A stretch of DNA of 64,000 nucleotides from Elusimicrobiota bacterium (GCA_029267355.1 JAJUJA010000002.1:65386-129385), one strand, 5' to 3'. Shown: positions 1 through 23,550, numbered from the stretch's first letter. The notes: a model not told the origin generated them from the sequence alone. Translations and numbers: made by a program.

Positions 1-16
1 TAAAGAAGTTGTTCTC

Positions 17-1644: not shown

Positions 1645-1659
1645 ACTCGGGGAAAATAT

Positions 1660-2457: not shown

Positions 2458-2489
2458 TAACGCGCTTTTTAAATTAATATAATTGATAT

Positions 2490-2903
2490 GTGGCAGACAC
2501 AATCACAAAAAAACATAGAAGCTGGAATATGTCTAGGATTAAGAGCCGAAACACAACTCCAGAAAAAAAGATCCGCAGTCTTTTGCATAGTTTGGGCTAT
2601 AGATTCAGACTGCATAGAAAAGATCTTCCAGGGAAACCAGACATTGTTTTACCGAAATTTAAAACAGTTATTTTTATACATGGATGCTTTTGGCACAAAC
2701 ACAAAGGATGCAAAAGAGCAAACACTCCAAAGTCGAATCTGAATTATTGGATTCCGAAGCTTGCTCGGAATGTAAAAAATGACAAAAAACACATTCGCGA
2801 TTTAAGAAAAAAAGGATGGAAAACCATGGTAATATGGGAATGCACATCAAAAAATCCATCAATACTTAAATCAGTTCTCAGGAAGCTGGAAAATGGAAAA
2901 TAA
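2490..2903 (+). CDS. vsr: Very short patch repair endonuclease (Vsr, T:G mismatch nicking)
   Basis: GTG start. MADTITKKHRSWNMSRIKSRNT...PGKPDIVLPKFKTVIFIHGCFWHKH...VIWECT matches E. coli Vsr end to end as I remember it (MAD..SKNM..I..R.T / PG.PDFV / IF.HGCFWH.H / VWEC). It overlaps the downstream methyltransferase gene by 11 nt. Confidence 0.9.
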   Translation: MADTITKKHRSWNMSRIKSRNTTPEKKIRSLLHSLGYRFRLHRKDLPGKPDIVLPKFKTVIFIHGCFWHKHKGCKRANTPKSNLNYWIPKLARNVKNDKKHIRDLRKKGWKTMVIWECTSKNPSILKSVLRKLENGK

Positions 2904-3867: not shown

Positions 3868-5009
3868 ATGAAGAACAATTTTCCCCCTTCTACATCAATC
3901 AGCCAAAAGAGAACAGAGATTACTATATAAAACTGCTCCGCGGTGCAGTCCAAACCAGCATATTATACAGTGAAAACGATAAACCGTACCTTCCATATAG
4001 AGCTGCTGAAAAAATATTTTGTAAAGCTTTTAGAGCTCAGGATGTATCAAGAAAAGACATATCTGTCGACGCTATAAAAAACCAAGAAGGGATAGGAATT
4101 AAAACATTCATCACTGGCGGTAAAAATGGGAAATTCGAAAAAATAGCCGAATTTGTAGACAGAGTTAAATACCCTTTATCTGAAAACAACCCTGAAAAAT
4201 TAATAAAAGAAATTTCAGAATACAGAAATTCAAGAATTGAAGAGGTCAGAAAAGAATTTGATTTAAGAAATATTGTTTACCACTCAATAGTTAGAGCCCC
4301 AGGGAAAATGTACATTTGCGAACAGCCGTTGTCTACTATAAAAACCAACAACTTAACTCTTCAAGGTAAAAAAGGCGCAAATATATATTTTAAAGATACA
4401 TCTTCTAAGTATCTATTTAGTCTTTCTAAACATACTCTATATACACATTTCTTTTATGATTCGCCCTTTGAAGAAATTACTATAAATAAAAACATTGAAA
4501 AAGAACTTCTGAGCTGGACGATACAAGAACTCAGTTCAAAATATGAGACCAAAAAAGAACTCTTAAAAAAATATGAATATGTTTTGCTTCCTTTATACAG
4601 CACGAGACTCGGAGATGTACCTGAAAAAAGCGGCCTTAATCAGTGGAATGCAGGAGGAAGGGAAAGGAATCCAAATGAAGTATACATCCCCATACCAAGG
4701 GTTGTCCATGTAAAGAAACCCAATTTTTTCCCTCCAAAAGACCAGAAATTTATTTTACAAACAGATGACGGATATAAATTTAAAGCAAAAGTATGCCAAG
4801 ATGGATCCAAAGCACTTATGACTGATCACAACAAGGACCTGGGCGAATGGATTTTACGCAAGATTTTAAAAATTCAAGAAGGTGAAAAAGTAACTTTAGC
4901 TCATCTTCAGGCAAAAAATGCTGATACAGTTATTATTTATAAAATTTCTGAGGACACTTATCTTATAAGTCTTGATTCTTTTGGCAGCTTTGCCAAAGAA
5001 TATACATGA
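3864..5009 (+). CDS. Putative type II restriction endonuclease, partner of the C5-MTase
   Basis: ATGA overlap with the MTase stop (3864-3867), the classic position in a vsr-M-R operon. The C-terminal ~130 aa (SGLNQWNAGGRERNPNEVYIPIP...FILQTDDGYKFKAKVCQDGSKALM...LGEWILRKIL) resemble, from memory only, the B3/EcoRII-N/BfiI-C type DNA-binding pseudobarrel. I could not pin a catalytic motif in the N-terminal half. Confidence 0.55.
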   Translation: MNEEQFSPFYINQPKENRDYYIKLLRGAVQTSILYSENDKPYLPYRAAEKIFCKAFRAQDVSRKDISVDAIKNQEGIGIKTFITGGKNGKFEKIAEFVDRVKYPLSENNPEKLIKEISEYRNSRIEEVRKEFDLRNIVYHSIVRAPGKMYICEQPLSTIKTNNLTLQGKKGANIYFKDTSSKYLFSLSKHTLYTHFFYDSPFEEITINKNIEKELLSWTIQELSSKYETKKELLKKYEYVLLPLYSTRLGDVPEKSGLNQWNAGGRERNPNEVYIPIPRVVHVKKPNFFPPKDQKFILQTDDGYKFKAKVCQDGSKALMTDHNKDLGEWILRKILKIQEGEKVTLAHLQAKNADTVIIYKISEDTYLISLDSFGSFAKEYT

Positions 5010-5036
5010 TATTAATATCTCTGGGGAGGTGGTATT

Positions 5037-5468
5037 ATGGCTGGATATTCAAGAATATATTGTATGGGCGAAAAAGGAGGCTTGGGAGGGATTGACGGCA
5101 TTAATCCTATACTTTTTCAGATCCTTGTGGGGGATGCCGGCAGACAATGGTATGAGGTCCATTACTTTGATAAGCACATAAAACCTCTAGCTGGAATCAC
5201 ACGCACGATTCCGGTCCGCCCCGATGACAAAAACGCATTATTAGATGCCTGTATATTATTTTATCCTGATTATTTTTCCAAATGTCCTTCTATAAAAAAA
5301 GTTTCTTCTAACCTCTTAGAGTCATCCCATAACGGCCTTTTAGATTTCAATTTAAACAAAGAGAACATTCCTGAGTACTGGGATAAGTTGCGCAAAGAAA
5401 GCGAACCATTTTTTAAAAAATTTTATATATTAGAGGCAAAACTAAATGAATATAAAAAACAACCTTAG
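5037..5468 (+). CDS. Hypothetical small protein (143 aa), putative partner of the HEPN-GGCT protein
   Basis: A GGAGGTG RBS lies 5-11 nt upstream. The 3' end overlaps the next gene by 23 nt. It has a glycine-rich N-terminus (GEKGGLGGIDG). I recognise no family. Confidence 0.5.
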   Translation: MAGYSRIYCMGEKGGLGGIDGINPILFQILVGDAGRQWYEVHYFDKHIKPLAGITRTIPVRPDDKNALLDACILFYPDYFSKCPSIKKVSSNLLESSHNGLLDFNLNKENIPEYWDKLRKESEPFFKKFYILEAKLNEYKKQP

Positions 5469-6378
5469 CAAATGGTGGGAAACCGCCAGAGCAAATTCAA
5501 TTGCTGATGCTATTGGACATATAAATGAAGCTAAATACAAAAAGAATATTATAGAAAAGTTTTCTTCTTTATCTAAGGCAGCCAATAAATTATGGACAGA
5601 ATACAATTATCAAAACAATCTAACAAAAGGCGATACGGCTTCTTTTGAGGCGCTGCTTCGTAACACTCTCTCTTATGCCGATAAGGCCAAGATAGCAGAC
5701 TCATTAGAATTAATGAATCTGGTAAAATTAGAACCCAAAATAATGGACCATTATTGCTTAAATAAAAATCATTATAACCCGGAAAATATATCCAAAGAGC
5801 ATCAAAAAGCCGCTTCTGAAAAGCACCGGGAACTTATCAAGAAATTTAACATTTGCTTAACTGAAAAAACGGACGAGAAATTGAATCAAATTATTAAAAA
5901 ATTGGCAGACCTTCTTTTTGTGGTCCGGTCGAATATCGCGCATGGAGAAAAAACAATAAACGGACCAGATTTTAAAAAAAATTTTCGGGACAAAATGGTA
6001 TGTGAAACCGCAGTTCCGGTTATGAAATTAATTTTTGATTCGTTTTTTAACCAACCAGACAATCGTTTAGCGGTTTATGGAACCTTAAAACCTGAAGGAT
6101 CCAAACATTACAAGATTTCAAGTATAGATGGCACTTGGATTAACGCCTCTTTAACCGGACGGATATATAGTGGAGATGATAGTCTCCCATATTTCATGTG
6201 GGATTTATCAGGTGATAATATCAAAGTAAAAATAGTTGAATCTTCTAAACTCCCTGACATATGGTTATACCTGGACAATTTTGAAGGCAAATCATACAAG
6301 CGAATATGGGTTTTGGCAAATACTCTAGATAATAAATTGATTGTTGCTAACATATACGCATCGAACAAACTCCAATAA
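5446..6378 (+). CDS. HEPN-domain (Rx4H) protein fused to a gamma-glutamylcyclotransferase (AIG2/GGACT-like) domain
   Basis: The N-terminal ~200 aa are all-alpha-looking and carry R161-SNIA-H166 (VVRSNIAHGEK, nt 5926-5943), the HEPN Rx4-6H signature. The C-terminal ~100 aa carry YGTLKPEG (nt 6076-) and LDNFEG (Glu at nt 6283-6285), the GGCT-fold N-terminal motif and the catalytic-Glu motif. Confidence 0.7.
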   Translation: MNIKNNLSKWWETARANSIADAIGHINEAKYKKNIIEKFSSLSKAANKLWTEYNYQNNLTKGDTASFEALLRNTLSYADKAKIADSLELMNLVKLEPKIMDHYCLNKNHYNPENISKEHQKAASEKHRELIKKFNICLTEKTDEKLNQIIKKLADLLFVVRSNIAHGEKTINGPDFKKNFRDKMVCETAVPVMKLIFDSFFNQPDNRLAVYGTLKPEGSKHYKISSIDGTWINASLTGRIYSGDDSLPYFMWDLSGDNIKVKIVESSKLPDIWLYLDNFEGKSYKRIWVLANTLDNKLIVANIYASNKLQ

Positions 6379-6591
6379 AAATATCGGAAGGATGGGCACA
6401 AATAAAGACGTGTTTTGGTAAGTGAAAAGCTAATTATGTGCTACGCTTTTTCGGCTTATCCTGACTCATTTTGTCACAATTCACAACATATCTCATCCTA
6501 ACATTTGCTGTAAAGGGCATTAGAAGAAGACATAGACGAATCAGGTAATATAAGCGGCCTGTTCTGAGAACGGATTAATTAAGAAGCAGGT

Positions 6592-13084: not shown

Positions 13085-13098
13085 AATTCCATTTATTT

Positions 13099-13454
13099 AA
13101 GCGGCGGACTGTACCCCGGATTCTGTCAGCCTTGCGGCCGGCTGTCATTTATCTGAGCGGATTACTCTGCGCTGCGCGTAAAAACGCGCGCGGCAAGGGG
13201 CCTGCGCATATTTATCCTTGCTCCACGCGGGGTTTTCACTGCCTCCGGCGTTGCCGCCGGAGCGGTGCGCTCTTACCGCGCCTTTTCACCCTTACCCGCC
13301 GTTAAGGCGTTGGCGGGCGGTATATTTTCTGCTGCACTTTCCGTTGCCGCCGGGTTACCCCTGCGGCCCCCGGTCTTTCGACCGGCGCGTTCCCTTGAGG
13401 AGTCCGGAAGTTCCTCCGCGGCTTAAAGCCGCGGCGACAGCCCATCCGCCGCTT
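13099..13454 (-). ncRNA. rnpB: RNase P RNA (bacterial type A-like)
   Basis: The reverse complement reads AAGCGGCGGAUGGGCUGUCGCCGC...GAGGAACUUCCGGACUCC...GGUAAGGGUGAAAAGGCGCGGUAAGAGCGCACCGC...GGAGCAAGG...ACAGAAUCCGGGGUACAGUCCGCCGCUU. This is collinear with E. coli M1 RNA conserved regions as I remember them. The 5' and 3' ends pair to form P1. Confidence 0.9.
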
Positions 13455-13932
13455 AAAAAAGCTCGTCCTGACTGAAAGATTCTTTTCTTTCTCTGGCGAT
13501 CTTTAAATTTTCGCTTTCCGGAAGTTTCTTTGAATCAAGTATGGAATTCACAAGCTTATCAGCAAGCTTGTTTTTTTCTCTGTTTATATGGACAAGCTTG
13601 ACTTCCTTGAATTTTTGCAAATCCTTTGAAATCACCTTCATCATTTCAGAAAGTTTCTCGTCTTTCAGAGCGTACTCGCCGTAAAATTGTTTTACAAGAA
13701 GCTGCGAATCGGAATATATCTCCAGAAAAGCGGCCTTGAGAGATGCGGCGCAGGTAAGAGCGAGGTGAAGAGCTGAGTATTCCGCCACATTATTGGTGGT
13801 TTTACCCAAAAATCGTCCTTCTTCTCCTATTATATTGTCTTTCTCATCCATTATTACAGCCGCGCAGGCGGACGGGCCCGGATTGCCGCGGGAGCCGCCG
13901 TCTATGTATATCTTAAGTTTCTTTCCTTTCAT
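13453..13932 (-). CDS. rnhA: Ribonuclease HI family protein
   Basis: RNase H motifs IYIDGGSRGNPGP, TNNVAEYSAL and YSDSQLLVKQ. Confidence 0.8.
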   Translation of the reverse strand: MKGKKLKIYIDGGSRGNPGPSACAAVIMDEKDNIIGEEGRFLGKTTNNVAEYSALHLALTCAASLKAAFLEIYSDSQLLVKQFYGEYALKDEKLSEMMKVISKDLQKFKEVKLVHINREKNKLADKLVNSILDSKKLPESENLKIARERKESFSQDELF

Positions 13933-13940
13933 CTTTCCTC

Positions 13941-14657
13941 TTATCTTTTAACGTATATCAGTCTGAAACAATTCATGCAATTTATCAAGCCGGCTCCCTT
14001 TTTAAGCTCATCGGCCTGCGAAGCGGTAACGGCAATTCCGCAGCCAGAACAAAAAAGTTTGCCGTCCTTAAGAATACAGGCGGCCAAAGCCGGAAATTTC
14101 TTCTTCTTCACTGCTTCGTACCTGGACAAAATTTCCTGCGGACACTGATTAGCCGCCTTTGACCTTTCGATCTCCTGCTCTTTTTTAAGAGCCAGCAAAG
14201 CCGCTTCGCTTTTCTTTATCTTCTCTAGTTCAGCCCGGCTTTGAATCTCAATTTTTCCCAGTTCAGCTTTTATAGACAGCGCTTCCGCTTCGGCTTTATT
14301 GCGGTTTTCCATAAGAAGGAGAACCTTCTCCTCAAGAGCGTCTATCTCCGCCTTCAGAGTTTTTTCTTCCGCCTCAAGCTTTTCCGCCGCCTGAGCGTCC
14401 TTTATCAAATTTTGAGAAGCTCTTCTTGAAGACAGCCTTTCTTCAGCCTGCATAAGGCTTAATTCAGCTTCCTTTATTTCAAGCTCGAGCTTTTCCTTTT
14501 CTCCGTCGGCTGAAAGGGCCTTTTTTCCGGCCGATAAAACGGCGGATTCAACTGCTACGGCGCTGTCCTTGAGGTCTTTCAGCTCTTCTTCAATATCTGC
14601 CAGACGCGAATCCAGTTCTGAAAGATATAAAATTTTCTGAAAATCGGAAAAATCCAT
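13941..14657 (-). CDS. Coiled-coil protein with C-terminal C4 zinc ribbon (COG1579-type)
   Basis: Long E/K/L-rich coiled coil followed by CSGCGIAV...INCMNCFRLIY (CxxC...CxxC). Confidence 0.75.
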   Translation of the reverse strand: MDFSDFQKILYLSELDSRLADIEEELKDLKDSAVAVESAVLSAGKKALSADGEKEKLELEIKEAELSLMQAEERLSSRRASQNLIKDAQAAEKLEAEEKTLKAEIDALEEKVLLLMENRNKAEAEALSIKAELGKIEIQSRAELEKIKKSEAALLALKKEQEIERSKAANQCPQEILSRYEAVKKKKFPALAACILKDGKLFCSGCGIAVTASQADELKKGAGLINCMNCFRLIYVKR

Positions 14658-14737
14658 AAAGCCGGGAATCCCCGTGAAAGATACTATTATAGCAAAAAAT
14701 TTGAAAAAACCCGATAAATTGCTATAATGTAAGTATT

Positions 14738-14929
14738 ATGGCATTTAAATGTGAAATTTGCGGAAAAAAACCGGTTTCTGGAAACTCATACAGCCATTCG
14801 CATAAGGCCTCAAAAAGGCTTTTCAAACCCAATCTTCAAAGGAAGAAAACTTTGATAAACGGCGTAAGAAAGGCTGTTTACATCTGTTCCACCTGCCTTA
14901 AAAGCGGAAAAGATCTGAAAGTTTCCTGA
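14738..14929 (+). CDS. rpmB: 50S ribosomal protein L28
   Basis: MAFKCEICGKKPVSGNSYSHSHKASKRLFKPNLQRKK is the typical L28 sequence; 63 aa. Confidence 0.9.
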   Translation: MAFKCEICGKKPVSGNSYSHSHKASKRLFKPNLQRKKTLINGVRKAVYICSTCLKSGKDLKVS

Positions 14930-14946
14930 TACCGTTCTCATCTTCT

Positions 14947-14976
14947 AAAAAGGGAAGCTCAGCTTCCCTTTTTTCC
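14947..14976 (+). terminator. Rho-independent terminator after rpmB
   Basis: AAAAGGGAAGC-TCA-GCTTCCCTTTT hairpin followed by a T-run. Confidence 0.7.
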
Positions 14977-15064
14977 TTTTGAAACATTATTTTAATATTT
15001 TGAAAATATATTTTTGCCTTTGACTTTATAATATATAATTTAAGGTAAAGCGTTTATTTACCTT

Positions 15065-18000
15065 ATGTCTTGGGCTGAAAAGCCCGGAGGCGAGATGGAA
15101 TTTGAAGAAAATGTAAAACTGGATCCCCAGGGGCTGCAGGACCTTGAAACGGCGAAGCTGTCCCTGAAATGGACAGTTGAAAAGCTTAAAGAGCTGAAAG
15201 AAGAATTAGCCGTATTGAAAGAAGAGAAAATCAAGAGGGAAAACCAGATAAGAGATTTGATACTCAGAGCCGAGCAAAGCGAAGAACTTGTAAAGAAGTG
15301 GCAGACGACCGTAAAGGCCTGGGAAGAAAATGTAAGAACTCAGTCTGAAATGGAGGCGGAGCTTAAAAAGAAGCTCAGACAGCAGATATTAAACGAGGAA
15401 ATCTCGCATCTGCTTTCGGCAAGAAAAAGGCTGGAAGAAGAAATCCGTCAGCTTAAAGAACAATTGGCTCAAAGGGAAGAGGAAATAGGCAGGATAAGAT
15501 CGCAATGGGCCGAGGAGCTTGGAAAAATTTCAAAATTCAAGGACGCCGAAGCTCTCGCCCTGGTGGAGAAATACAAGGAAGAATATGAAAAAAACTCTCT
15601 GTCGCTGAAAGAAAATCTTGAAAAATTTGCCGCTGAAAGCGAAGAAAAAAGGCGCGCCGCCATAGAAGAGCTCAGATTTAATATTGAAAAGGTTTATGAG
15701 GAAAAGCTGGCAAGCCTTGAGTCCATGCTGGCGAAAGAAAGGGAAAAGAACGCCGCTCTGGCGGCTGAAGCCCACAAAAAAGCGCTTGAAAAAGCTGACG
15801 CACAGGCTGAAGATTTAAGACAGAAATATGAAAAGGAAAAAGAATTTTTAATCGAAGAAATAGAAAAAAGAAAACAGCAGGCCCAGCAAGCGGTTTCGGC
15901 CGAACTGGCGAGACTTTCTCAGGAATATCTGAAAAAAGCCGCAGAGCTTGACACCATTATAATAGCCGAAAGGGAAAAAGCCGCGCAGGAATTTGCGCAA
16001 AAAGAAAGGGAACTGGCCTTGAAGTATGAAGCCAAACTTGAAGAAGCGGAAAACAGGCATGCGGCGGCCCTTGCAGAGATGACAAGAAAGATAGAAGAAT
16101 TTGCGGCTAAACGCGAAGAAGAATATGTAAATACAAGACTTAAACTGGAAGAGAATCTTCTTGAGCTGATAAAAAAGCATGACTCTCAAACCGCGCAAAA
16201 TTTTGAGAAAGCTGCCGAAGAGATCAGGGGCAAATGGGCTCAAATGGCGGCCGAACTCGCCGGCGAAAAAACAAGGCTGCTTGCCGAAAATGACGCCCGC
16301 TGGAGCAAAGAACTGCAGAAGATCTCGCTGGAAGCGGAGCTTAAATTCCAGCAAGATCTTATTAAGGCAAGACAGGAGCTTGAAGCACAAAAAGAGCAGG
16401 ATATAGAAAAGATAAAATCGGAGCTTGAAAGACTTTACAAGGAAAAGATTGAAAGGCATAAAGCGGCGCTGGAAAACGAGTTTTCGCAAAAAGCGGCCCG
16501 GCTTCAGGAAGAAGCGGACAATCAGATAGAGAAAGCCAGACAGGAAGCGCTTAGGGAGAGAAAGCAGTATCTTGCCATAAAGGAAGACGAACTGGCCGCA
16601 GAAAAGGAAAAGCTTAGAAAAGAATTTTCCGCCTACAGAAACTCTCTGAAAGAAAAATTTGAGCATTTTGAAGACGAACTTAAGCTGAAATATGCCGAGA
16701 AAGAGGCTGCGCTTGAAGCGAAATACGCCAAAGAGACAGAAGAGAAAAAGCAGGCGCTGCAGCAGGAAAATGAAACATGGCTTAAGGCGATGAAAGCTGA
16801 GTTTGAGGAAAAAGAAAAGATCTTAACCGGCGAAAAACAGGAACTGGCCGAAAAAATCTCCCGGCTGACCGCCTCTTTTCACGAAAGACTTTCGCAAAAA
16901 GAGCTTGAAATGAGCGCCAAATATGAAAGCTGGCTTAAAGAGGCCGAAGAAAAAACGGCGCAGGCGCTTAAAAGAAAAGAGGAAATTTTAAAGAAGCAAT
17001 ATGAAAACAGGGAACTTCTTCTTGAAAGCAGGGAAAAGAAAATGCAGGAGGAGCTGGCCGAGGAGAGAAATAAATTTGAGGAAAAATTAAAGGAGCTGAA
17101 AAAAGATAACGAGCTGGTCCTTGCCGCTGAAAAAGAAAAGCTTAAGGAAGAAGTAATAACTCAGAAAGAAGCCCTGAGAGCCGCCGAAAAGGAATTGAAA
17201 GCGGCCGTTGACAGAAACGAAAAGGAAAAAATGGAATTCAAGGAAAACCTGACGGCTCAATTTGCCGTAAAGGAGCAGAACCTTTTTGATTCTCTATCAA
17301 AGGCGAAAGATGAAATGAACAGACAGGTTCTTGAAAAAAAGGAAAGCCTTGAAGCCGAATATGAGAGAAGAAAGGAAGCTCTCAGGAACAAAGAAAGGGC
17401 GCTTGAAGCTGTTTACGACGAAAAAGCGAAGAAACTTGAGGCGGAATTTTCGCAAAATAAGGCCTCGCTTGAAAAAATGATGAATTCGGAAATTTCAAAG
17501 GAGAAACTCAAGCTTGAGGAACTGTTTGAAACCAGAAAAGAAGAGCTTCAGAAGGCTCATTTTGAAAAAATGGCGCAAATGGAAGCTTCCTACTCGCAGA
17601 AACTTGCTGACATTTCGCAAAGACTGTCGGCGGAGTATGAGGCCAAACTGAAAGACCTGCAGGAAAAAATCAGGGAAGAAAAAGCGGCCTACGAAAAGGA
17701 AAAATCTCAGGAAATGGAAAAGTTTCTTGAAAACTTTTCCAGAGAAAAAGAGGAATGGGAAAAGAAAAAATTTGAAATACTGGAAAATGAAAGACTCAAT
17801 CTCCAGGCCCAGTATGAAAAGAAGGAAGCCGAATTAAACGCCTTCATCTCAAGACATAAAGAAGCTCTGCAGGATGAAAAGAACAAGCTTGAACAGGCCT
17901 ATAACGCCAGACTTAATACGCTTGAAAGGGAATATTTTCAGCATTTTGAAAAAGCCAGAAGCCAGATGGACAAACTGAGAAAGGAGTTTGAGGATGCTTT

Positions 18001-18148
18001 CAGGGAAAAGGAAAAAGAGCTTGAAGAAGAGAAAAACAAAGCCGTATCCAGAGCTCTGTCAAGGGAAAAAGAGCTTGTCGAAAAATACAAGGCCAAGGAA
18101 GAGGAGTTAGTAAAATACTGGCAGAATAAATTTAAGGAAGAGAAATAA
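15065..18148 (+). CDS. Giant E/K-rich coiled-coil protein (1027 aa)
   Basis: A continuous heptad-like E/K/L/A-rich sequence. I see no proline after roughly the first 25 residues. An L-x3-Y-E-x-K motif recurs. No enzymatic or membrane domain is visible. Confidence 0.8.
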   Translation: MSWAEKPGGEMEFEENVKLDPQGLQDLETAKLSLKWTVEKLKELKEELAVLKEEKIKRENQIRDLILRAEQSEELVKKWQTTVKAWEENVRTQSEMEAELKKKLRQQILNEEISHLLSARKRLEEEIRQLKEQLAQREEEIGRIRSQWAEELGKISKFKDAEALALVEKYKEEYEKNSLSLKENLEKFAAESEEKRRAAIEELRFNIEKVYEEKLASLESMLAKEREKNAALAAEAHKKALEKADAQAEDLRQKYEKEKEFLIEEIEKRKQQAQQAVSAELARLSQEYLKKAAELDTIIIAEREKAAQEFAQKERELALKYEAKLEEAENRHAAALAEMTRKIEEFAAKREEEYVNTRLKLEENLLELIKKHDSQTAQNFEKAAEEIRGKWAQMAAELAGEKTRLLAENDARWSKELQKISLEAELKFQQDLIKARQELEAQKEQDIEKIKSELERLYKEKIERHKAALENEFSQKAARLQEEADNQIEKARQEALRERKQYLAIKEDELAAEKEKLRKEFSAYRNSLKEKFEHFEDELKLKYAEKEAALEAKYAKETEEKKQALQQENETWLKAMKAEFEEKEKILTGEKQELAEKISRLTASFHERLSQKELEMSAKYESWLKEAEEKTAQALKRKEEILKKQYENRELLLESREKKMQEELAEERNKFEEKLKELKKDNELVLAAEKEKLKEEVITQKEALRAAEKELKAAVDRNEKEKMEFKENLTAQFAVKEQNLFDSLSKAKDEMNRQVLEKKESLEAEYERRKEALRNKERALEAVYDEKAKKLEAEFSQNKASLEKMMNSEISKEKLKLEELFETRKEELQKAHFEKMAQMEASYSQKLADISQRLSAEYEAKLKDLQEKIREEKAAYEKEKSQEMEKFLENFSREKEEWEKKKFEILENERLNLQAQYEKKEAELNAFISRHKEALQDEKNKLEQAYNARLNTLEREYFQHFEKARSQMDKLRKEFEDAFREKEKELEEEKNKAVSRALSREKELVEKYKAKEEELVKYWQNKFKEEK

Positions 18149-18150
18149 AT

Positions 18151-20964
18151 ATGGACTGGGATTTTCTGGAATACCCGCAAGTCTCGCAGGAAGAAATAGA
18201 TAATGCCAAGATAATTCTCCGCCTTTCAAGCGAGCTCAAGGAAAAGGAAGCCATGCTCGCATCCATGCGCGCAAAAATAGAGGAAGAAGCTCAAAAAGCG
18301 GCAAAAACCAAAGAACTTGAGTATGAAACCATAATGAAGCTGCGCGAGGAAAAATTTTCCAGAAAAGAGGAAGAAATAAGCAGAATTCTGTCTGAGAAGG
18401 AAAGTCAGCTGTGGAACAAATACAAGGAGCTTCTTGAACAGACAGCCGAAAGGCAAAGGCAGGAAACCGAGGCTGAAAAGGCCAGAATGGAGCAAATTCT
18501 GGCGGAAAAGGAAAAGGAACTCAACGATTACAGGGAAAAAATAACGCAGGAAAGCAGGGAGCTTTTCTCAAAGTGGCGCAAGGAAAAAGATTGGGAGACG
18601 GAAAGGGAAAAGGAAATTTTCCTCTCCCGCCTTGAAGAACTTAAGGAAGATTACAGAAATAAGCTGGAAGAAAACTCCCGCAAGATAGAGCAGATCTATG
18701 AGGCCAAGACTCAAAATCTGAGAGAAACGCTTGAAAACAGGCATAAGGCCGAGCTGGAAAAACTTAAGGACGATTTTAAGAAAGAGCTGGAAGAAAAACT
18801 TGCCGCCGAAACAGCGAAAATAGCCGGGGAATATTCCCTGAAATTCGATCAAAATTCGGCCGACTTCAAACATTACCTGTCGGAAATAAAAAACCATCTT
18901 CAAAAAGAATATGAGGAAAAACTCAAGGCGTATAAAGAGAATGAATTTCTGGAAATAAACAGGCTGAAGGAAGAATTGCAGCTTAAAAATCTGGAAATAG
19001 AAAGAATAAAGGAAGAGTTTTCGGCAGCGTCGGAAAAACTTAAAAAAGAATATGCAGCTGCCGGGGAAAGAAACAGGATTGAAAGTGAAAAAATTCAAAA
19101 AGAGTACATTTTGAAAAAGGAGCAGCTGGAAGAAGAGTTTGAAAAAAGATTTTCCGATATTGAGGAAAAAGAGAGCGAAATAAAGGAAGAGGCCGCGGCA
19201 AAAATAAAGGAACTGGAAGCCGTTTACGCAGAAAAAACGAAAATATTAAACGAAAAGGAACGCGAATTAAAGGAAAGGAAGGAATATTTTGAAAACCTTG
19301 AAAAGGAAATACAGCAGACGCTTTTCAACAAGGAAAAAGAGATAGCACTGGCCCATCAGGCCGCCGCCGAAGCGTACAAAAGCTCGCTTTTGCAGGCCTA
19401 TGAAGCCAAGGAAAAAATCCTGGAAAGAGAAAAAGAAAATCTCGCCAAAAAAGCGGCTGAGCTTGAAAAAGAGAGAAAGAGATTTATTAATGAAACAGAG
19501 AGGGCTATTGCCGAAAAGAACGCGGTTTTGCAGCTCTTAAAAAAGGAAAGGGAAGAGTTTAAAGAGAAAAAAGAGGAATTTGCAAACGAGCTTATTGAAC
19601 AGGCAAAAAACAGGGAAAAGGAGTTTGAAGCGGCTTTGAGAGAGAAATTTGAGATTGAGTTAAGAATCGAAAAGGATAAAGCTCTTGCGGAAAAGCTCAG
19701 CTGGGAAAAAATAAAGGAGAATTTCAAGGAGGAAATAGAGTCTCTCCGAAAAAGGCACGAAGCGGAAACCGAAGAAAAGAGCAGGCAGTACAAGGCTCTT
19801 GCGGAAAAAATAAGATCAGAAAAGGAACTTGAGATAAGATCCATAAAAGAGGCGTGGGAAGCGGAAAGAAGCAAAATGCTTGAATCATTTTCGCTTGAAA
19901 GGGAGAAATTGCTTGAAGAAAAAAGAAACGAACTTTCCATGCAGGCCGCAGCTTTAAGAAAAGAATTTGAAGCCGCGCGGTATGCGCTTAAAATCGACCT
20001 TGAGATCAAGCTGCAGGAAACATATGAAGATTTTGAGCAAAAGATAAGGATAAGAGAAGCCGAAGAAAAGGAGAGGATAGATTCCCTCAATGAGAAAATA
20101 AAACGGCTCAATCTTGAGCTTGAGAAAAGTCTTTCGCAAAAGAATGAGCTCAATAAAAGAATAATGGAAACTGAAGAGATATCTGCGATTCTCATGCAGG
20201 AAAAAGCGGAACTGGAAAAGGAAAAAAACGAAACGGCCCTGATGATAAAAAGATCGCTTGAAAAAGAGTTCTGGGAGAAAACAAAAAGGCTTGAAGAAAG
20301 GTATATGAACCATATTTCGCAGACCGCCCTGCACTATCAGGAAATACAAAGAGCGAAGGAAGAGGAATTTTTCTCCAAAATACAGGCTATTAAAAGCCGG
20401 TATGAACAGGAAATAAAAAGCCAGGAGGAAAGGCTTCAATCATTCTATGAACAGAAACATCAGCATTTGGCCAAAAGTCTTGAGGAAACCTACGCGCTCA
20501 GGGAGAAAAATCTTCTTTTAAGAATAAAACAGATAGAAACTTCTTATGAAAATCTTCTTAAACAAAAGGCGGAAGAAATAAACAGGGACACTCTTTTAAA
20601 TAAAAACCTTGAAGAGCTTGAGAAACAGCTCAGAGAAAAGAACAGGGAACTGTCGGAAAAAATACTGACGCTGGAAAACACGCTTGCCCTCAAGGAAAAG
20701 GAGCTTTCTGACAGATACGAAGAGAAAAGAAAAAATCTTGAACAGGAATACCATGTTAAACTTTCCCAGATAGAATCGGAAAAATCCAAGCTTAAGGCCC
20801 TGACTGAACAGGAGCAGGAGATAATCTCAAATTTAAGAAAAAGAGAAGAGCAGTTAAAGGAAACCTACAGGGAAAAAGAGGCCGCTCTTGTCAGAGAATT
20901 CAACAGCGTAAGGGAAAAACTGGAACTTGAGTATCAGAAAAAGCTTAAAGATAAAGGGATATAG
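18151..20964 (+). CDS. Giant E/K-rich coiled-coil protein (937 aa), paralogue-like partner of the upstream gene
   Basis: ATG lies 2 nt after the upstream TAA. Composition and the L-x3-Y-E-x-K periodic motif match the upstream protein. Confidence 0.8.
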   Translation: MDWDFLEYPQVSQEEIDNAKIILRLSSELKEKEAMLASMRAKIEEEAQKAAKTKELEYETIMKLREEKFSRKEEEISRILSEKESQLWNKYKELLEQTAERQRQETEAEKARMEQILAEKEKELNDYREKITQESRELFSKWRKEKDWETEREKEIFLSRLEELKEDYRNKLEENSRKIEQIYEAKTQNLRETLENRHKAELEKLKDDFKKELEEKLAAETAKIAGEYSLKFDQNSADFKHYLSEIKNHLQKEYEEKLKAYKENEFLEINRLKEELQLKNLEIERIKEEFSAASEKLKKEYAAAGERNRIESEKIQKEYILKKEQLEEEFEKRFSDIEEKESEIKEEAAAKIKELEAVYAEKTKILNEKERELKERKEYFENLEKEIQQTLFNKEKEIALAHQAAAEAYKSSLLQAYEAKEKILEREKENLAKKAAELEKERKRFINETERAIAEKNAVLQLLKKEREEFKEKKEEFANELIEQAKNREKEFEAALREKFEIELRIEKDKALAEKLSWEKIKENFKEEIESLRKRHEAETEEKSRQYKALAEKIRSEKELEIRSIKEAWEAERSKMLESFSLEREKLLEEKRNELSMQAAALRKEFEAARYALKIDLEIKLQETYEDFEQKIRIREAEEKERIDSLNEKIKRLNLELEKSLSQKNELNKRIMETEEISAILMQEKAELEKEKNETALMIKRSLEKEFWEKTKRLEERYMNHISQTALHYQEIQRAKEEEFFSKIQAIKSRYEQEIKSQEERLQSFYEQKHQHLAKSLEETYALREKNLLLRIKQIETSYENLLKQKAEEINRDTLLNKNLEELEKQLREKNRELSEKILTLENTLALKEKELSDRYEEKRKNLEQEYHVKLSQIESEKSKLKALTEQEQEIISNLRKREEQLKETYREKEAALVREFNSVREKLELEYQKKLKDKGI

Positions 20965-21009: not shown

Positions 21010-23550
21010 TTATTTAGAGACTTCTTTTTTCAGATCAGCCAGAATATTAAGAGCTTCCAGGGGGGTTAGTTTTTCTATCTCTATGGCAGCAATTCTGCAG
21101 GACAAGGAGTCATTTTCAAACAAGGGTAGAAAATCCTGTGCCGCATTCTGCTCAGGCGGCGGAGCTTTTTCAAGCTCGGAAAGTATTTCTCTGGCCCTTG
21201 AAACGCATTCTTGGGGCAGGCCGGCAAGCTCGGCCACATGTATCCCGTAGGATTTATCCGCCGGGCCGGGCACGATTTTATGCAAAAAAACAAGCTCCTT
21301 TTTGCCGTCGGCGCCGATCCACTCCCTTGCTGCTATGTTGAAATTTCTAGCCCCTTCAAGAATTAAAGGCAATTGAGTCATCTCAAAATAATGAGTGGCG
21401 AAAATTACCATGGCCTTTTTTTTATGGAGATACTCGCAAACGGCTCGAGCTATGGAAATGCCGTCAAAAGTGGAAGTTCCGCGGCCTATTTCGTCAAGAA
21501 GGACCAGACTTCTCGGCGTGGCTGATTTGAGTATTTCGGCAGTCTCTTTCATTTCAACCATGAAAGTGGACTCTCCGCGGCTTAAACGGTCATGGGCGCC
21601 GATACGGGTCATTATTCTGTCGGTCACGCCTATGACGGCACGGTCTGCCGGAACAAAACTGCCTATCTGAGCCATCAGCACGCAAAGAGCGTTTTGTCTT
21701 AAATACACGCTTTTTCCGCTCATATTGGGGCCGGTTAAAATTATCATTGAAGCGCGCTTTTCGCCTATGGCAAAGTCGTTCGGCACAAATTCGCCGGCGG
21801 CAAGATATCTCTCAACAACAGGATGTCTTCCCCCTGTTATTTCTATTATGTTCTCGTTTGTTATCTCAGGTTTTACATAGCCGTAGGTAAAAGCGGCCTG
21901 CGCCAGACTGTAAAAGGCGTCAAGTTCGGCAAGGCACAGCGAATAAGTCCTTATTTCAGGCAGGGACGAGAAAATTTTTTCTTTAAGATTTTCAAAAATG
22001 GCGCTCTCAAGTTTTATTATCTTTTCCTGCGCGCCGAGTATTTTATCTTCAAGCTGTTTAAGCTCCGCCGTTGAAAATCTTTCCGCATTCGTTAAGGTCT
22101 GTCTTCTTATATAAGAAGGCGGAACCTTTGATAAATGAGTTTTAGTCACCTCTATAAAATAGCCGAAATTGGAAGTATATCCTATTTTAAGCGAGGGAAT
22201 GCCTGTTTCGCGCCTGCAGGATTCCTCCATCTCGGATATCAGCCGCTGAGAATTTTTCCTTATGGTTCTTAATTCATCAAGCTCGCTGTTATAACCGTCG
22301 GCTATAACGGCCCCGTCTGATATTCTTGCCGGCGGCTCAGCAACAACGGCCCTCTCTATTTCAGACCTCAAAGGCATCAAAGAAGGCAAATCGGCAAGCC
22401 GGTTGGCTATGAAACCGGCCACTGAGAGAAAATCTCCGCTTGATATGAGCGCCTTGAATCTCGGCAAAAGAGAAAGCGCCCTGCCGAGCGCGGCCGCATC
22501 CCTGGGCGTCAATGAAAAATTGGATATGCGTCCGGATATGCGTTCTATATCCGGAGCGGCGTCAAGCAAAGCCGCCAAATCCTGCCTTTCTTTTTCAGCA
22601 GACACGAGAAAAGAGGTTAAATCCTGCCTGACCTTGATGCTGTAAATATCGGCCAGCGGATTTAAAATCCATCTTTTAAGCATTCTGGAGCCCATTGATG
22701 TCTTGGAAAAATCAAGAGTCTTCCACAGGCTCACGCCGCCTTCATAGTCGGCTTCAACCAGCTCAAGGGTTTTTATGGCCGTTTCATCCAGGCGCATTAT
22801 TCCCCTGTCTTCAAAATACAAGGGTGAAAAAGAAAATTTTGTAGCAGGCTGGGTCTTGAGAATATATGAATAGGCGAGAGCCGCCGCTTTAAGGGCGAGC
22901 TTTCTGTTCTTCCATTCGTTTTCATTCTCAAGGCCCGTTTCAGCGTATTCAAAAAAATGCGCGGCAACAGGCCCGGAAAATTTCACTCCTGATTTGGAAA
23001 AAATCCCGCTTGTCTTATGATCTGCCACTATCTCGGAAGGCATCACTCTGGCTATAAGCTCTTTAAGGCAGTGAAACTCAGGATCATTCAGGTTTTGAGA
23101 AGCCTTAAATTCGCCGGTTGAGACGTCGCAATACGCCGCGCCCCAGCCGACTATGTCGGCAAACACCGCAAAAAGATAGTTTGAAGATTTTTTCTCAAGC
23201 AAATCCTCTTCTATCAATGTCCCCGGAGTTATTATCCTTACAACCTCTCTTTTGAAAAGCTTGCTTTTTGAATCCTCTTCGCCAACCTGCTCGCAAACGG
23301 CCACGCTGCAGCCGAGTTTTATCAGTCTTGATATGTAGGATGAGCTTGAATGGTGAGGAACCCCGCACATTGGCACCCCTTGTCTTGAAGTCAGGGTAAG
23401 AGACAGGGCCGCGCTCGCTTTTTTCGCGTCCTCGCCGAACATTTCATAAAAATCGCCCAATCTGAAAAAAAGTATGGAATCTTTGTGCTTTTTTTTCAAA
23501 AAAGCGTACTGCTTCATCAACGGCGTGTCTGGCACCTCAAGGATTTCCAT
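21010..23550 (-). CDS. mutS: DNA mismatch repair protein MutS
   Basis: N-terminal mismatch-binding region (TPLMKQY...FYEMFGEDA), Walker A GPNMSGKS and LLDEIGRGTSTFDG; 846 aa. Confidence 0.95.
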   Translation of the reverse strand: MEILEVPDTPLMKQYAFLKKKHKDSILFFRLGDFYEMFGEDAKKASAALSLTLTSRQGVPMCGVPHHSSSSYISRLIKLGCSVAVCEQVGEEDSKSKLFKREVVRIITPGTLIEEDLLEKKSSNYLFAVFADIVGWGAAYCDVSTGEFKASQNLNDPEFHCLKELIARVMPSEIVADHKTSGIFSKSGVKFSGPVAAHFFEYAETGLENENEWKNRKLALKAAALAYSYILKTQPATKFSFSPLYFEDRGIMRLDETAIKTLELVEADYEGGVSLWKTLDFSKTSMGSRMLKRWILNPLADIYSIKVRQDLTSFLVSAEKERQDLAALLDAAPDIERISGRISNFSLTPRDAAALGRALSLLPRFKALISSGDFLSVAGFIANRLADLPSLMPLRSEIERAVVAEPPARISDGAVIADGYNSELDELRTIRKNSQRLISEMEESCRRETGIPSLKIGYTSNFGYFIEVTKTHLSKVPPSYIRRQTLTNAERFSTAELKQLEDKILGAQEKIIKLESAIFENLKEKIFSSLPEIRTYSLCLAELDAFYSLAQAAFTYGYVKPEITNENIIEITGGRHPVVERYLAAGEFVPNDFAIGEKRASMIILTGPNMSGKSVYLRQNALCVLMAQIGSFVPADRAVIGVTDRIMTRIGAHDRLSRGESTFMVEMKETAEILKSATPRSLVLLDEIGRGTSTFDGISIARAVCEYLHKKKAMVIFATHYFEMTQLPLILEGARNFNIAAREWIGADGKKELVFLHKIVPGPADKSYGIHVAELAGLPQECVSRAREILSELEKAPPPEQNAAQDFLPLFENDSLSCRIAAIEIEKLTPLEALNILADLKKEVSK

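Follow-up and report, generated by a model that had tools for sequence, protein, structure and literature searches.

Giant hendecad coiled-coil paralogs encoded by a conserved gene pair of Elusimicrobia, candidates for a lineage-specific scaffold

Introduction

The rods of intermediate filament (IF) proteins and of crescentin are dominated by heptads, are about 300–400 aa long and comprise coils 1A, 1B and 2 with linkers and one stutter. Bacterial coiled-coil-rich, IF-like proteins are thought, or have been shown, to self-assemble into structural filaments (PMC6599971). The Streptomyces protein Scy has a canonical coiled coil of 63 aa followed by a non-canonical coiled coil of 1226 aa (PMC3718342), and extended hendecads are present in Scy as well as in FilP (PMC9858780). 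Hendecads also form the E/G peripheral stalk of the A-ATPase, a parallel two-stranded coiled coil with nearly straight helices and a beam-like, anisotropic stiffness (PMC3293630).

Here we describe two adjacent genes, termed A and B, in a stretch of 64,000 nucleotides from an Elusimicrobiota bacterium (GCA_029267355.1 JAJUJA010000002.1:65386-129385), which is referred to below as the window. The phylum Elusimicrobia consists of ultramicrobacteria that have been little studied, and no more than a couple of its species are in culture. One that can be cultivated is Elusimicrobium minutum (strain Pei191), whose cells have a diameter of about 0.2–0.3 µm. An initial annotation of the window had proposed that A and B encode giant helical proteins with an internally repeated unit and a possible role as a scaffold.

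Results and Discussion

The A-B gene pair and its chromosomal setting

The two open reading frames are in tandem at 15065-18148 (1027 aa) and 18151-20964 (937 aa), the TAA of the first (18146-18148) being separated by 2 nt from ATG 18151, exactly as initially annotated. The 1027 aa length is that of the mechanical ORF. Translation of A probably begins at ATG 15095 (M11, producing a protein of 1017 aa) rather than at 15065, because a GGAGG is located at 15086-15090 and the orthologs start with MDFDN.LDPS, which aligns to MEFEENVKLDPQ in the window. The features of the locus are as follows.

14701..14728, plus strand: promoter-like site 5' of rpmB, TTGAAA-16-TATAAT, 11 of 12 matches with a TG extension
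14738..14929, plus strand: rpmB, coding for ribosomal protein L28 (63 aa) and conserved as the neighbour 5' of the A-B pair
14947..14973, plus strand: intrinsic-terminator-like hairpin of 12 pairs with a T-run after rpmB, dividing rpmB from the A-B unit
14979..15007, plus strand: weak promoter-like site in the AT-rich spacer before A, 9 of 12 matches
15086..15090, plus strand: GGAGG ribosome-binding site for the ATG at 15095, as read from the sequence
15095..18148, plus strand: gene A from M11, 1017 aa, a heptad-like head and a hendecad rod of ~900 residues
18151..20964, plus strand: gene B, 937 aa, collinear paralog of A from residue ~116 to its end
21010-23550, minus strand: mutS, flanking the A-B pair on the other side from rpmB

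The pair is surrounded by RNase P RNA, rnhA, rpmB, mutS, folD, gyrB and gyrA, in agreement with the core-gene setting initially noted. Of the 73 loci compared, 68 had rpmB (with PF00830 annotated in that of locus L002) immediately 5' of A, and the rpmB-A-B triplet was kept in about 65–68 of 70 related loci. Besides rpmB, no conserved partner or functional neighbour of the pair was identified in the gene neighbourhoods of the related loci. The interval between the A stop and the B start, 2 nt here, was mostly <40 nt in the other loci, and of the 69 intergenic regions from orthologous loci, 55 contained a strong hairpin with a T-run equivalent to the one after rpmB here. The site at 14979..15007 is a candidate promoter for A-B, such that A and B would be co-expressed as an operon from a promoter of their own 3' of the rpmB terminator. 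The PADLOC and PHROG models had no match to either protein, and we rejected a role in anti-phage defence or as a phage structural protein based on this result, the core-genome context and the conserved synteny with rpmB.

Composition and family searches

Both proteins are highly charged (E+K+R 43–45%, LIVMFYW ~25%), with A being composed of 21.9% E, 15.5% K, 11.7% A and 11.6% L, and B having 23.1% E and 15.0% K. Neither contains Cys. The only Pro residues are A7, A21 and B9, consistent with the earlier observation that proline is absent after residue ~25. Gly is so sparse (eight in A, three in B) that no G-x4-G-K Walker A motif is possible and, together with the lack of any family match in Pfam and NCBIfam scans of A and B, this upheld the view that they have no Walker or globular signature. 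The N-termini of A and B are acidic and have no hydrophobic segment, and for this reason we consider both proteins likely to be cytoplasmic.

Profile searches of the PDB with both family alignments produced nothing significant, and a word-indexed homology search with B had no match, its candidates being swamped by E/K words. In the literature on coiled-coil, cytoskeletal or hendecad proteins of Elusimicrobia we found nothing relevant, although a hendecad family survey might already include the family.

A hendecad register in A and B

The hydrophobic residues of A and B recurred with a period of 3.67–3.68 in the window A and of 3.60–3.63 in B, rather than 3.5. The spectral peak of A, at 3.68 residues, had a power of 5.3 versus a shuffle 99th percentile of 2.2, and among the orthologs the peak was at 3.66–3.68 in every A. 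The coiled coil of B was a mixture of hendecads and heptads, with a mean period of 3.60 in the window and 3.63 in most orthologs. The autocorrelation at lag 11 had z values of 7.1 (A) and 5.5 (B), and in A those at lags 22, 33 and 44 were 4.8–5.9. At multiples of 7 within lags 21–42 the autocorrelation was negative; the only significant lags were near-integer numbers of turns at 11/3. A and B are real coiled coils beyond what their composition produces, and their register is a hendecad one.

Folding on 11 residues placed hydrophobic residues at occupancies of 57% and 86% in two positions four apart, with no more than 33% elsewhere. The seam consists of these two strong core positions (Leu, then Tyr/Leu/Phe) and a weak third. 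It is narrow, occupying 2–3 of 11 positions within about ±33 degrees, and the core is sparse, at ~2–2.3 hydrophobic residues per 11. The residue most strongly locked to the core was Tyr, found there in 92% (A) and 71% (B) of cases in the window, compared with 67% and 58% for Leu and 60% and 73% for Phe. The corresponding ortholog means for A and B were 71% and 78% (Tyr), 65% and 61% (Leu), and 75% and 72% (Phe), with 28% expected by chance. Glu, Gln, Ser and Ala were on the face opposite the core; the mean direction of Ala was ~170–180 degrees away from it and only 21% (window) or 15–18% (family-wide) of Ala residues were in the core, versus the same 28% by chance.

The L-x3-Y-E-x-K motif that had first drawn attention to these proteins is two neighbouring hendecad core positions, with Tyr in the second. 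All 26 of the 26 instances initially quoted were present, and the counts of [LIMV]-x3-Y (18 in A and 19 in B) far exceeded those of 2000 shuffles (4.4 ± 1.9 and 5.7 ± 2.2), as did those of a stricter form of the motif (10 and 8 versus 0.4 and 0.5 expected). The claim of periodicity beyond composition was therefore confirmed, and its scale was revised, as the actual periodicity is 11 residues and not a recurrence every 30–50 residues. Motif spacings of 33 or 44 residues occur because these are multiples of 11. No sequence repeat longer than the register was detected, as the best off-diagonal 44-aa scores (71 and 75) were within those of register-preserving shuffles (maxima 73 and 81), and the internally repeated unit initially proposed was not borne out. 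Spectrin repeats, a class that includes bacterial EzrA-like proteins, are tandem three-helix bundles of ~106 residues with loops. The suggested spectrin-like logic was likewise not supported, as A and B had no Spectrin Pfam match, no internal repeat and no loop-forming Pro or Gly.

Anatomy of the two proteins

By profile comparison A and B are collinear paralogs, with hhalign giving a probability of 98.4% (E 6e-15) and a collinear alignment over 835 columns (A 116–1039 with B 26–958). Six elements within the proteins are referred to below.

15140..15187, plus strand: N-terminal cap motif D-L-E-T-A-K-L-S-L-K-W-T-V-E-K-L, A residues 16–31, where the long helix starts
15293..15331, plus strand: invariant Trp-rich island K-K-W-Q-x-T-x-K-x-W-E-E-N in the head, A residues 67–79, local period 3.44–3.48
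15440..18130, plus strand: hendecad rod of A, residues ~116–1012, phase flat against an 11/3 reference with two exceptions
16172..16183, plus strand: invariant K-K-H-D island, A residues 360–363, adjoining an AlphaFold2 helix break at 362–363
16667..16693, plus strand: invariant F-E-D-E-L-K-L-K-Y island, A residues 525–533, adjoining an AlphaFold2 helix break at 530–536
18193..18240, plus strand: degenerate cap motif of B, E-I-D-N-A-K-I-I-L-R-L-S-S-E-L-K, B residues 15–30

Gene A differs from B in having an extra head of ~110 residues, which is heptad-like and highly conserved. The period was 3.44–3.48 over the first ~110–150 residues of A and 3.62–3.72 over the remainder, and P0011 and P0049, two distant paralogs, likewise had a heptad-like start followed by a hendecad rod. 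The two phase exceptions in the A rod were a single shift of about -160 to -180 degrees at ~380–460 and a bump at ~700–790. The cap motif follows the family pattern [DE]-x-[ED]-T-A-[KR]-L-x-L-[RK]-W and recurs in distant paralogs, in a protein fused to a histidine kinase and in a stand-alone protein of 238 aa.

An AlphaFold2 monomer model of A, built on a 7-sequence alignment, was helical over residues 17–1015 apart from four short breaks, which agrees with the initial description of the proteins as nearly all-helical giants, although the model was bent and of low confidence (pLDDT 63.7, pTM 0.26). AlphaFold and sequence-based predictors are known to perform poorly on such coiled-coil sequences, and AlphaFold models of long coiled coils can be bent spuriously (PMC11676326).

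The break at 530–536 is near the mid-point of A, leaving helices 17–529 and 537–1015, and adjoins an invariant island. Each chain might then be an intramolecular antiparallel hairpin of ~70 nm with FEDELKLKY at its apex, similar to the arms of SMC/Rad50 or a neighbouring CT398-type hairpin. We regard this as highly improbable, as the halves do not compensate for one another in length: N-terminal parts of 533 aa, as divided around FEDELK, pair with C-terminal parts of 470–559 aa, and one-sided indels are uncompensated, such as a lone 58-aa insertion in P0005 and a lone indel of 18 aa in P0002. There are also no ATPase head domains, AlphaFold is prone to such spurious bends, and the model is of low confidence. 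SMC/Rad50/MukB-type arms were rejected based on the lack of an ATPase domain or Walker motif and the independent variation of the halves around the mid-point island.

Distribution and evolution

When 1.84 billion proteins, a collection without the window's own A and B, were searched exhaustively by HMM, only 77 matched, and all 70 of 70 related loci were from Elusimicrobia, in support of the earlier suggestion that the genes are lineage-specific. A further ~35 weak matches (E 1e-11 to 1e-3) were to the mid-rod, in giant proteins, and the six whose periods were measured (P0045, P0046, P0047, P0056, P0058 and P0062) had values of 3.63–3.66. We did not accept these as homologs and regard them as matches of periodicity and composition. 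Based on these searches, A and B represent a previously undescribed family restricted to Elusimicrobia.

Orthologs of A ranged from 983 to 1123 aa and most of those of B from 965 to 971 aa. Relative to the closest relative (L004), the window proteins had identities of 67% (A) and 60% (B) with zero gaps, dN was 0.26 and 0.31, respectively, and dS was saturated. Such conservation indicates that A and B are real, constrained genes. Among 38 orthologs of A, all 18 of the indels that span 4 aa or more had lengths that could be written as 7a+11b, and 14 of the 18 were 0 or 7 mod 11, where ~3.3 would be expected. Of 46 indels in B, 22 were 0 or 7 mod 11. In addition, the register maps were conserved between orthologs at only ~30% identity, with A and B each having a map of its own. 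The comparisons point to phase-preserving evolution and to selection for an unbroken hydrophobic seam. An ER/K single alpha-helix (SAH) domain was rejected for A and B, given the coherence of the seam over ~900 residues and the indels that keep its phase.

We also considered whether A and B could be amphipathic 11-mer proteins that bind membranes or lipids or protect against stress. Apolipoproteins, perilipins and group 3 LEA proteins have in common with A and B a periodicity of 11 residues and an E/K/A-rich composition, and the best, non-significant PDB profile matches included apolipoprotein A-IV (E 0.03 and 0.17). We consider this very unlikely nonetheless, as the hydrophobic stripe of A and B is a narrow coiled-coil seam with Ala and Glu on the opposite face, and not a broad lipid face. 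There is also no Pro punctuation into 22-mers and no Apolipoprotein or LEA Pfam match. Indels quantised in heptads or hendecads and a register map conserved over ~900 residues would be unexpected for lipid-surface helices or disordered protectants, and strong conservation extends to the heads and sequence islands.

Proposed assembly and role

Our preferred reading, to which we assign a probability of about 0.5, is that A and B are long cytoplasmic rods, probably parallel homo-oligomers, that co-assemble into a lineage-specific scaffold. The oligomeric state, the co-assembly and the cell-biological role are the parts that we infer. In both proteins ~850–900 residues of coiled coil made mainly of hendecads follow the cap (and the head in A). 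A seam at the hendecad period would run almost straight along the helix and, because of this, the strands would be nearly parallel without supercoiling, forming a stiff rod of roughly 135–150 nm, estimated from a rise of 0.15 nm per residue. We propose that A and B each form parallel, in-register homo-oligomers, probably two-stranded, and that the A and B rods co-assemble through their heads, caps and the invariant islands KKHD and FEDELKLKY. As the core is sparse, stability in a two-stranded form is not guaranteed and parts of the proteins could be single alpha-helices; the lack of Ala in the core, unlike in the dimeric Scy/FilP hendecads, means that the oligomeric state may be higher.

The adjacency of the two genes could also reflect an obligate, in-register parallel A:B heterodimer, like the A/V-ATPase E/G stalk, that polymerises into the heteromeric filament initially proposed. 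In its favour, A and B are always adjacent, with the 2-nt gap here making translational coupling probable, they are collinear paralogs, and a parallel heterodimeric hendecad coiled coil has been described in the A-ATPase E/G stalk (PMC3293630). The periods of A and B differ consistently (3.66–3.68 versus 3.63), however, and their conserved register maps are ~830 degrees (~2.3 turns) apart over the rod and locally out of phase. The argument for homo-oligomers is nevertheless an indirect one, as small mismatches in periodicity can be tolerated by helices, and A and B could also pair in a staggered or antiparallel manner. The lengths of the two proteins do not covary (r = -0.16), and as the length of A varies while that of B is constant, the A indels have no counterpart in B. 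A simple in-register two-stranded A:B dimer is thus disfavoured, since the conserved maps differ and the lengths do not covary, and we judge the obligate heterodimer unlikely; a heteromeric filament is possible as a co-assembly of A with B.

The cap motif is also present in proteins other than A and B. P0066, a 1152-aa paralog that starts with the cap, shares its operon with genes for a response regulator and a coiled-coil histidine kinase (L074), P0054 has the cap fused directly to a HATPase_c kinase domain, and P0063 is the stand-alone 238-aa protein. Combined with the near constant length of B in most species, these observations are consistent with A and B being spacers, tethers or molecular rulers, in which the head and cap dock them to a complex involved in signalling or located at the pole, with the rod setting a distance of ~140 nm. 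We hold this to be quite unlikely, given that the length of A is variable and that neither a kinase nor any other partner is conserved beside the A-B pair. It is also compatible with the scaffold model and the two are not mutually exclusive.

More speculatively, the scaffold proposed above could be an Elusimicrobia-only cytoskeleton in which A and B form straight struts of ~140 nm that determine how these ultra-small cells are shaped, how wide they are or how they are organised internally, with the cap/head as a docking module. We view this extension as doubtful. It would have ~80 consecutive hendecads per rod, the longest near-uninterrupted natural ones met in this analysis, forming non-supercoiled struts, and the new cap/head module, which would also recruit coiled-coil histidine kinases, would couple them to signalling.

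If the scaffold reading is correct, the Elusimicrobia would have a conserved cytoskeletal or scaffold system of their own that is based on a rare coiled-coil geometry, and A and B would be concrete, clonable candidates for factors in cell shape or organisation in this phylum. The proteins also offer a clean natural structural test case, with hundreds of in-phase hendecad residues and a core rich in Tyr/Phe and poor in Ala, and an evolutionary record in which insertions occur only as whole heptads or hendecads. The cap is in addition a new motif at the N-terminus by which long coiled coils are connected with histidine kinases.

Comparison with known systems

The E/G stalk of the A/V-ATPase and the subunit b dimer of the F-type enzyme demonstrate that a two-chain hendecad rod of different, related chains is physically feasible. 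With its length of ~12 nm (120 Angstrom), the E/G stalk is ten times shorter than A and B. It carries a globular head and belongs to an enzyme, whereas A and B lack any globular domain and the A-B pair has no adjoining ATPase genes.

Crescentin, CfpA, Scc and eukaryotic intermediate filaments are similar to A and B in being long alpha-helical rods without cofactor-binding domains, and functionally A and B would fall in this coiled-coil-rich (IF-like) class. At the level of sequence the intermediate-filament-like logic initially suggested did not hold, since A and B have no Filament (PF00038) match in Pfam scans, a period of 3.67 rather than 3.5 in A, and ~900 aa of essentially continuous hendecads without Pro/Gly linkers.

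The closest analogues of A and B, by similarity of architecture, are Scy and FilP of Streptomyces. The two pairs, which are found in Actinobacteria (Scy/FilP) and Elusimicrobia (A/B), share no detectable homology. The DivIVA-like motif RGYDxxEVD of Scy/FilP (PMC9858780) is absent from A and B, as determined with the regular expression GY[DN]xx[QE]V[DN], no DivIVA Pfam match was detected in either at E <= 0.1, and the cap motif of the family is a different one. The dimeric hendecad core of Scy/FilP is rich in Ala (PMC9858780), whereas that of A and B is depleted in Ala (15–21% occupancy) and rich in Tyr/Phe; A has an almost pure 11/3 period in contrast to the 51-residue super-repeat of Scy/FilP. 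At present A and B are best described as a well-defined new family whose structural role is proposed by analogy, as rpmB is their sole conserved neighbour. Co-assembly of A and B would yield a structural scaffold, or an element of a cytoskeleton, that is specific to this lineage and functionally analogous to Scy/FilP or crescentin-type proteins. Supporting that comparison, Scy/FilP and A share a short conserved N-terminal motif and a heptad-like coiled coil followed by a very long hendecad-rich one, the proteins are of a similar size class (1326 aa for Scy versus 1017 aa for A and 937 aa for B), and in both cases an organism has two related proteins that have no enzymatic domains and are, or are predicted to be, cytoplasmic.

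The A and B genes

The two giant coiled-coil genes lying between rpmB and mutS, referred to as A and B, were found exactly where the initial annotation had placed them, with 2 nt between them:

15065-18148, plus strand, A (longest ORF), 1027 aa
18151-20964, plus strand, B, 937 aa

The real start of A is probably ATG 15095 (M11) rather than the longest-ORF ATG 15065, based on a GGAGG at 15086-15090, 4 nt upstream, and on all orthologs starting at the equivalent position. Residues of A are counted from M11 below, unless called ORF residues. The composition of both proteins was extreme (E 22-23%, K 15%, L 12%, A 8-12%), with no Cys and with Pro confined to A7 and A21 (ORF residues) and B9. Neither protein matched any Pfam, NCBIfam, PADLOC or PHROG model, a Walker A motif was excluded in both as Gly is too sparse, and neither sequence gives any hint of catalysis, secretion or insertion into membranes.

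Periodicity of the rods

All 26 instances of the L-x3-Y-E-x-K motif quoted in the initial annotation were present, and the motif was clearly non-random. The pattern [LIMV]-x3-Y occurred 18 times in A and 19 times in B, against 4.4 and 5.7 expected from shuffles (maxima 13 and 14), and the strict motif 10 and 8 times against ~0.5 expected. However, the spacing of 30-50 residues that had been proposed corresponds to every third or fourth hendecad (11-residue repeat), as illustrated by the Tyr residues of A at 33-residue intervals from ORF residue 255 to 354. The hydrophobic spectrum of A had a sharp peak at 3.68 residues, coherent over long range and near 11/3 rather than the heptad value of 3.5 (power 5.3 versus a shuffle 99th percentile of 2.2), and that of B peaked at 3.60. 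BLOSUM autocorrelation was maximal at lag 11 in both proteins, with z of 7.1 for A and 5.5 for B; the z of A was 4.6-6.2 at lags 22, 33, 44, 66 and 77 and negative at lags 21, 28, 35 and 42.

When A 474-704 was written in 11-residue rows, two hydrophobic columns four residues apart were 57% and 86% occupied, with a weak third column (33%) three residues on and E, K, Q or A in the others. The motif therefore represents neighboring hendecad core positions, with Tyr in the second. With the seam drawn from other hydrophobic residues only, and the core taken as within +/-50 degrees, Tyr was the most core-locked residue (22/24 in A, R = 0.83; 71% in B), while Glu, Gln, Ser and, in particular, Ala faced away from the core in both proteins. 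Family-wide, the share in the core was 71-78% for Tyr, 72-75% for Phe and 15-18% for Ala, with 28% expected by chance. A search for a longer repeat gave best off-diagonal 44-residue self-matches of 71 and 75, scores that register-preserving shuffles also attained (maxima 73 and 81), and the spectrin-like or intermediate filament (IF)-like unit proposed earlier was not borne out.

Selection on the hydrophobic seam

Relative to the closest locus, L004, A and B aligned without gaps at 67% and 60% identity. Their dN values, 0.26 for A and 0.31 for B, were roughly double the 0.13 of mutS, whereas dS was saturated. Among 38 A orthologs we counted 18 distinct indels that spanned 4 residues or more, with lengths of 7, 11, 18, 22, 29, 36, 40, 58, 65 and 87, all of the form 7a+11b. 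Lengths of 0 or 7 mod 11 made up 14/18 in A (~3.3 expected) and 22/46 in B. In addition, register maps, the cumulative phase along each protein, were near-superimposable between orthologs sharing only ~30% identity. Together, these data indicated selection on an unbroken hydrophobic seam along the whole rod, the hallmark of a true coiled coil and unexpected for a disordered, lipid-surface or single-alpha-helix (SAH) protein. The long coiled coils first proposed were supported, and we consider A and B to be genuine long coiled-coil rods with a probability of roughly 0.8.

The 58-residue insertion in one A ortholog (P0005, locus L002; alignment A1 columns 606-663) appears to have arisen by tandem duplication of a 29-residue (7+22) unit (...LENKKETxIEEFKxKEAxLSEKEK...), and would illustrate rod growth by whole core repeats. 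Another relative, P0015 (HBL17182.1, 826 aa), had an A-like N-terminal ~650 residues joined to an unrelated Ala/Val/Pro-rich C-terminus and probably reflects a chimeric assembly or gene call, not a true fusion.

Paralogy and the head of A

BLASTP between A and B was weak (E 1e-5). Comparing the A and B ortholog alignments profile to profile gave 98.4% probability and E 6e-15, collinear across 835 columns, and their sequences identify A and B as paralogs. The alignment paired A 116-1039 with B 26-958, so that A amounts to B with ~100 residues of additional head; the B N-terminus bears a degenerate cap motif, E-I-D-x-A-K-[IM]-x-[LF]-R-L-S-S-E-L. The head is the most conserved part of A (column consensus 80-90%), and the first ~110-150 residues have a heptad-like period of 3.44-3.48. 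Over the other ~900 residues the phase barely changes relative to the 11/3 reference, apart from one shift (~-160 to -180 degrees, residues ~380-460) and one transient bump (~700-790). This rod otherwise evolves fast, with invariant islands breaking in. The motifs of the head and the islands of the rod are:

A residues 16-31, cap motif D-L-E-T-A-K-L-x-L-K-W-x-V-E-K-L
A residues 67-79, Trp-rich island in the head, K-K-W-Q-x-T-x-K-x-W-E-E-N
A residues 360-363, invariant island K-K-H-D
A residues 525-533, invariant island F-E-D-E-L-K-L-K-Y
Close to the A C-terminus, invariant islands W-E..K..L...R-Q....F-E-K-K-E and Y-Y.E.E..R

An AlphaFold2 monomer of A was helical over 17-1015, with breaks at 214-216, 232-238, 362-363 and 530-536. 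We gave these breaks little weight because of the low confidence (pLDDT 63.7, pTM 0.26) and because AlphaFold is known to introduce spurious bends into long non-canonical coiled coils (PMC11676326).

In its general form, [DE]-[LVI]-[ED]-T-A-[KR]-[LM]-x-L-[RK]-W-[AST]-[LV]-[ED]-[KR]-[LI], the cap motif also heads several other proteins, including three distant giant coiled coils:

P0011, 1171 aa, period 3.67
P0049, 1372 aa, period 3.63
P0066, 1152 aa, from the same MAG as locus L037

P0066 represents a third paralog class beside A and B. Downstream of it at its locus (L074 4419-11908) come a 945-aa coiled-coil HisKA/HATPase_c histidine kinase, whose start overlaps the P0066 stop, and a response regulator. 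In P0054 (580 aa) the cap motif and coiled coil are joined directly to a HATPase_c domain. P0063 and P0088, both of 238 aa, consist of the head alone (L077 8001-8717, GCA_027327915.1; L078, L079) and carry the cap motif and a W-x-x-T-x-x-x-W-E-E island; in a genome of high GC content, their gene has a GATase gene on one side and an AddAB-like helicase-nuclease pair on the other. This recurrence suggests that the cap and head are a docking or nucleation module, with a possible link to signaling.

Strand pairing

The conserved register map of A was nearly flat (net -120 to -200 degrees, period 3.67), whereas that of B gained ~+650 degrees (period 3.63-3.64), with a dip at residues ~200-240. The two maps are thus ~2.3 turns apart and locally out of phase. 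Nor did the lengths covary (r = -0.16), B being nearly constant and A varying by up to 140 residues. The heteromeric filament first envisaged would, in its simplest form, be an in-register A:B dimer, and both observations disfavor it. An intramolecular SMC-like hairpin also ranks below homo-oligomers, as the segments on either side of FEDELK vary independently (C-terminal parts of 470-559 aa accompany an N-terminal part that stays at 533 aa). Lone indels occurred in A orthologs (58 aa in P0005, 18 aa in P0002), and such uncompensated, phase-keeping changes would be tolerated automatically only with the same chain, in parallel register, as partner. Parallel homo-oligomers are therefore favored from the sequences; A and B would each form parallel homo-oligomeric rods and then co-assemble.

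Distribution and genomic context

A word-indexed search of 5.8 billion proteins found only six A relatives (28-33% identity). Searching 1.84 billion representatives exhaustively with an HMM gave 77 matches at E < 1e-3, 41 of them at E < 1e-10, mostly fragments; all named matches were "hypothetical protein" from Elusimicrobia or Elusimicrobiota MAGs. Scanning one genome per species identified 70 loci, those with taxon titles all being Elusimicrobia, Elusimicrobiales or Elusimicrobiaceae (a few were titled "MAG: bacterium" only), in agreement with a lineage-specific feature. The nearest were L004 (67% identical) and L005 (Elusimicrobium sp., 54%). Complete tandem A and B occurred in ~65 loci (A 983-1123 aa, B mostly 965-971 aa); all A proteins had a period of 3.66-3.68, and most B proteins one of 3.63.

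The gene rpmB was immediately upstream of A in 68/73 fetched loci, which had no other conserved neighbor; mutS and folD lay downstream in the closest relatives only. A strong hairpin and T-run followed rpmB in the window (14947-14973) and in 55/69 loci, so a separate promoter for A-B probably lies in the AT-rich spacer, with read-through from rpmB possible. The spacer was conserved in length, mostly 160-260 nt (L001-L073; window 14930-15094). In the 55/69 loci the GC-rich hairpin lies ~50-65 nt past the rpmB stop, which leaves ~150 nt with room for a conserved promoter or 5' UTR.

The window at large is unremarkable core chromosome (RNase P RNA, rnhA, a CT398/CdsZ-like protein, mutS, folD, gyrB, gyrA), which, with the constant position beside rpmB, fits the non-mobile character originally proposed. 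Upstream of A it includes:

13096-13453, minus strand, RNase P RNA class A (RF00010, 220 bits, full length)
13941-14657, minus strand, CT398/CdsZ-like protein, 238 aa, divergent beside rpmB

The former makes an 85-aa Pro-rich ORF (13218-13475, plus strand) spurious. The latter, a coiled-coil hairpin with a C4 zinc ribbon (PF24481, E 1.5e-6; NF047363, E 1.8e-13 but under the curated cut-off), is kept beside rpmB in L004 only. Window 1-6400, a low-GC (34-38%) segment that also holds two ORFs without family, is probably a restriction-modification or defense islet:

1660-2457, DUF6339 protein
2893-3867, C-5 cytosine DNA methyltransferase
3864-5009, NgoFVII-like restriction endonuclease

Comparison with known systems

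Membership in Scy/FilP, IF/crescentin, spectrin, apolipoprotein/LEA, SAH or SMC was rejected, at least one defining feature failing in each case, and no description of the A/B family was found in the literature searched, which did not extend to a 2023 catalogue of hendecad families. Five giant metagenome proteins (P0045, P0046, P0056, P0058 and P0062; 1673-3006 aa) matched the A profile weakly, in the rod, with a coherent period of 3.63-3.66; as they are unrelated, long hendecad-type rods occur in other lineages too.

The undistorted helix has a period of 3.63 (PMC9858780), and 11/3 is within ~0.03 of this value, so the A and B strands would run nearly straight, like the hendecad segment of the A-ATPase E/G stalk (PMC3293630). 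A rise of 0.15 nm per residue predicts rods ~135-150 nm long. The cap motif, short heptad head and ~900-residue non-heptad rod of A resemble Streptomyces Scy, which has 63 aa of canonical and 1226 aa of non-canonical coiled coil (PMC3718342), and are also paralleled in FilP, which assembles IF-like filaments and networks (PMC6599971). By this analogy, A and B would serve as a lineage-specific structural scaffold or cytoskeletal element, the explanation we favor, though only tentatively. In contrast to the dimeric hendecads of Scy and FilP, which have Ala cores (PMC9858780), the A/B core is sparse, with large Tyr/Phe/Leu at the axial position and Ala excluded, and could reflect three or four strands. 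Long non-canonical coiled-coil rod proteins of bacteria are already known as a kind; what appear undescribed in the literature searched are the A/B family with its cap and head, a hendecad core rich in Tyr/Phe but poor in Ala, the fixed rpmB-A-B order and the restriction to Elusimicrobia.
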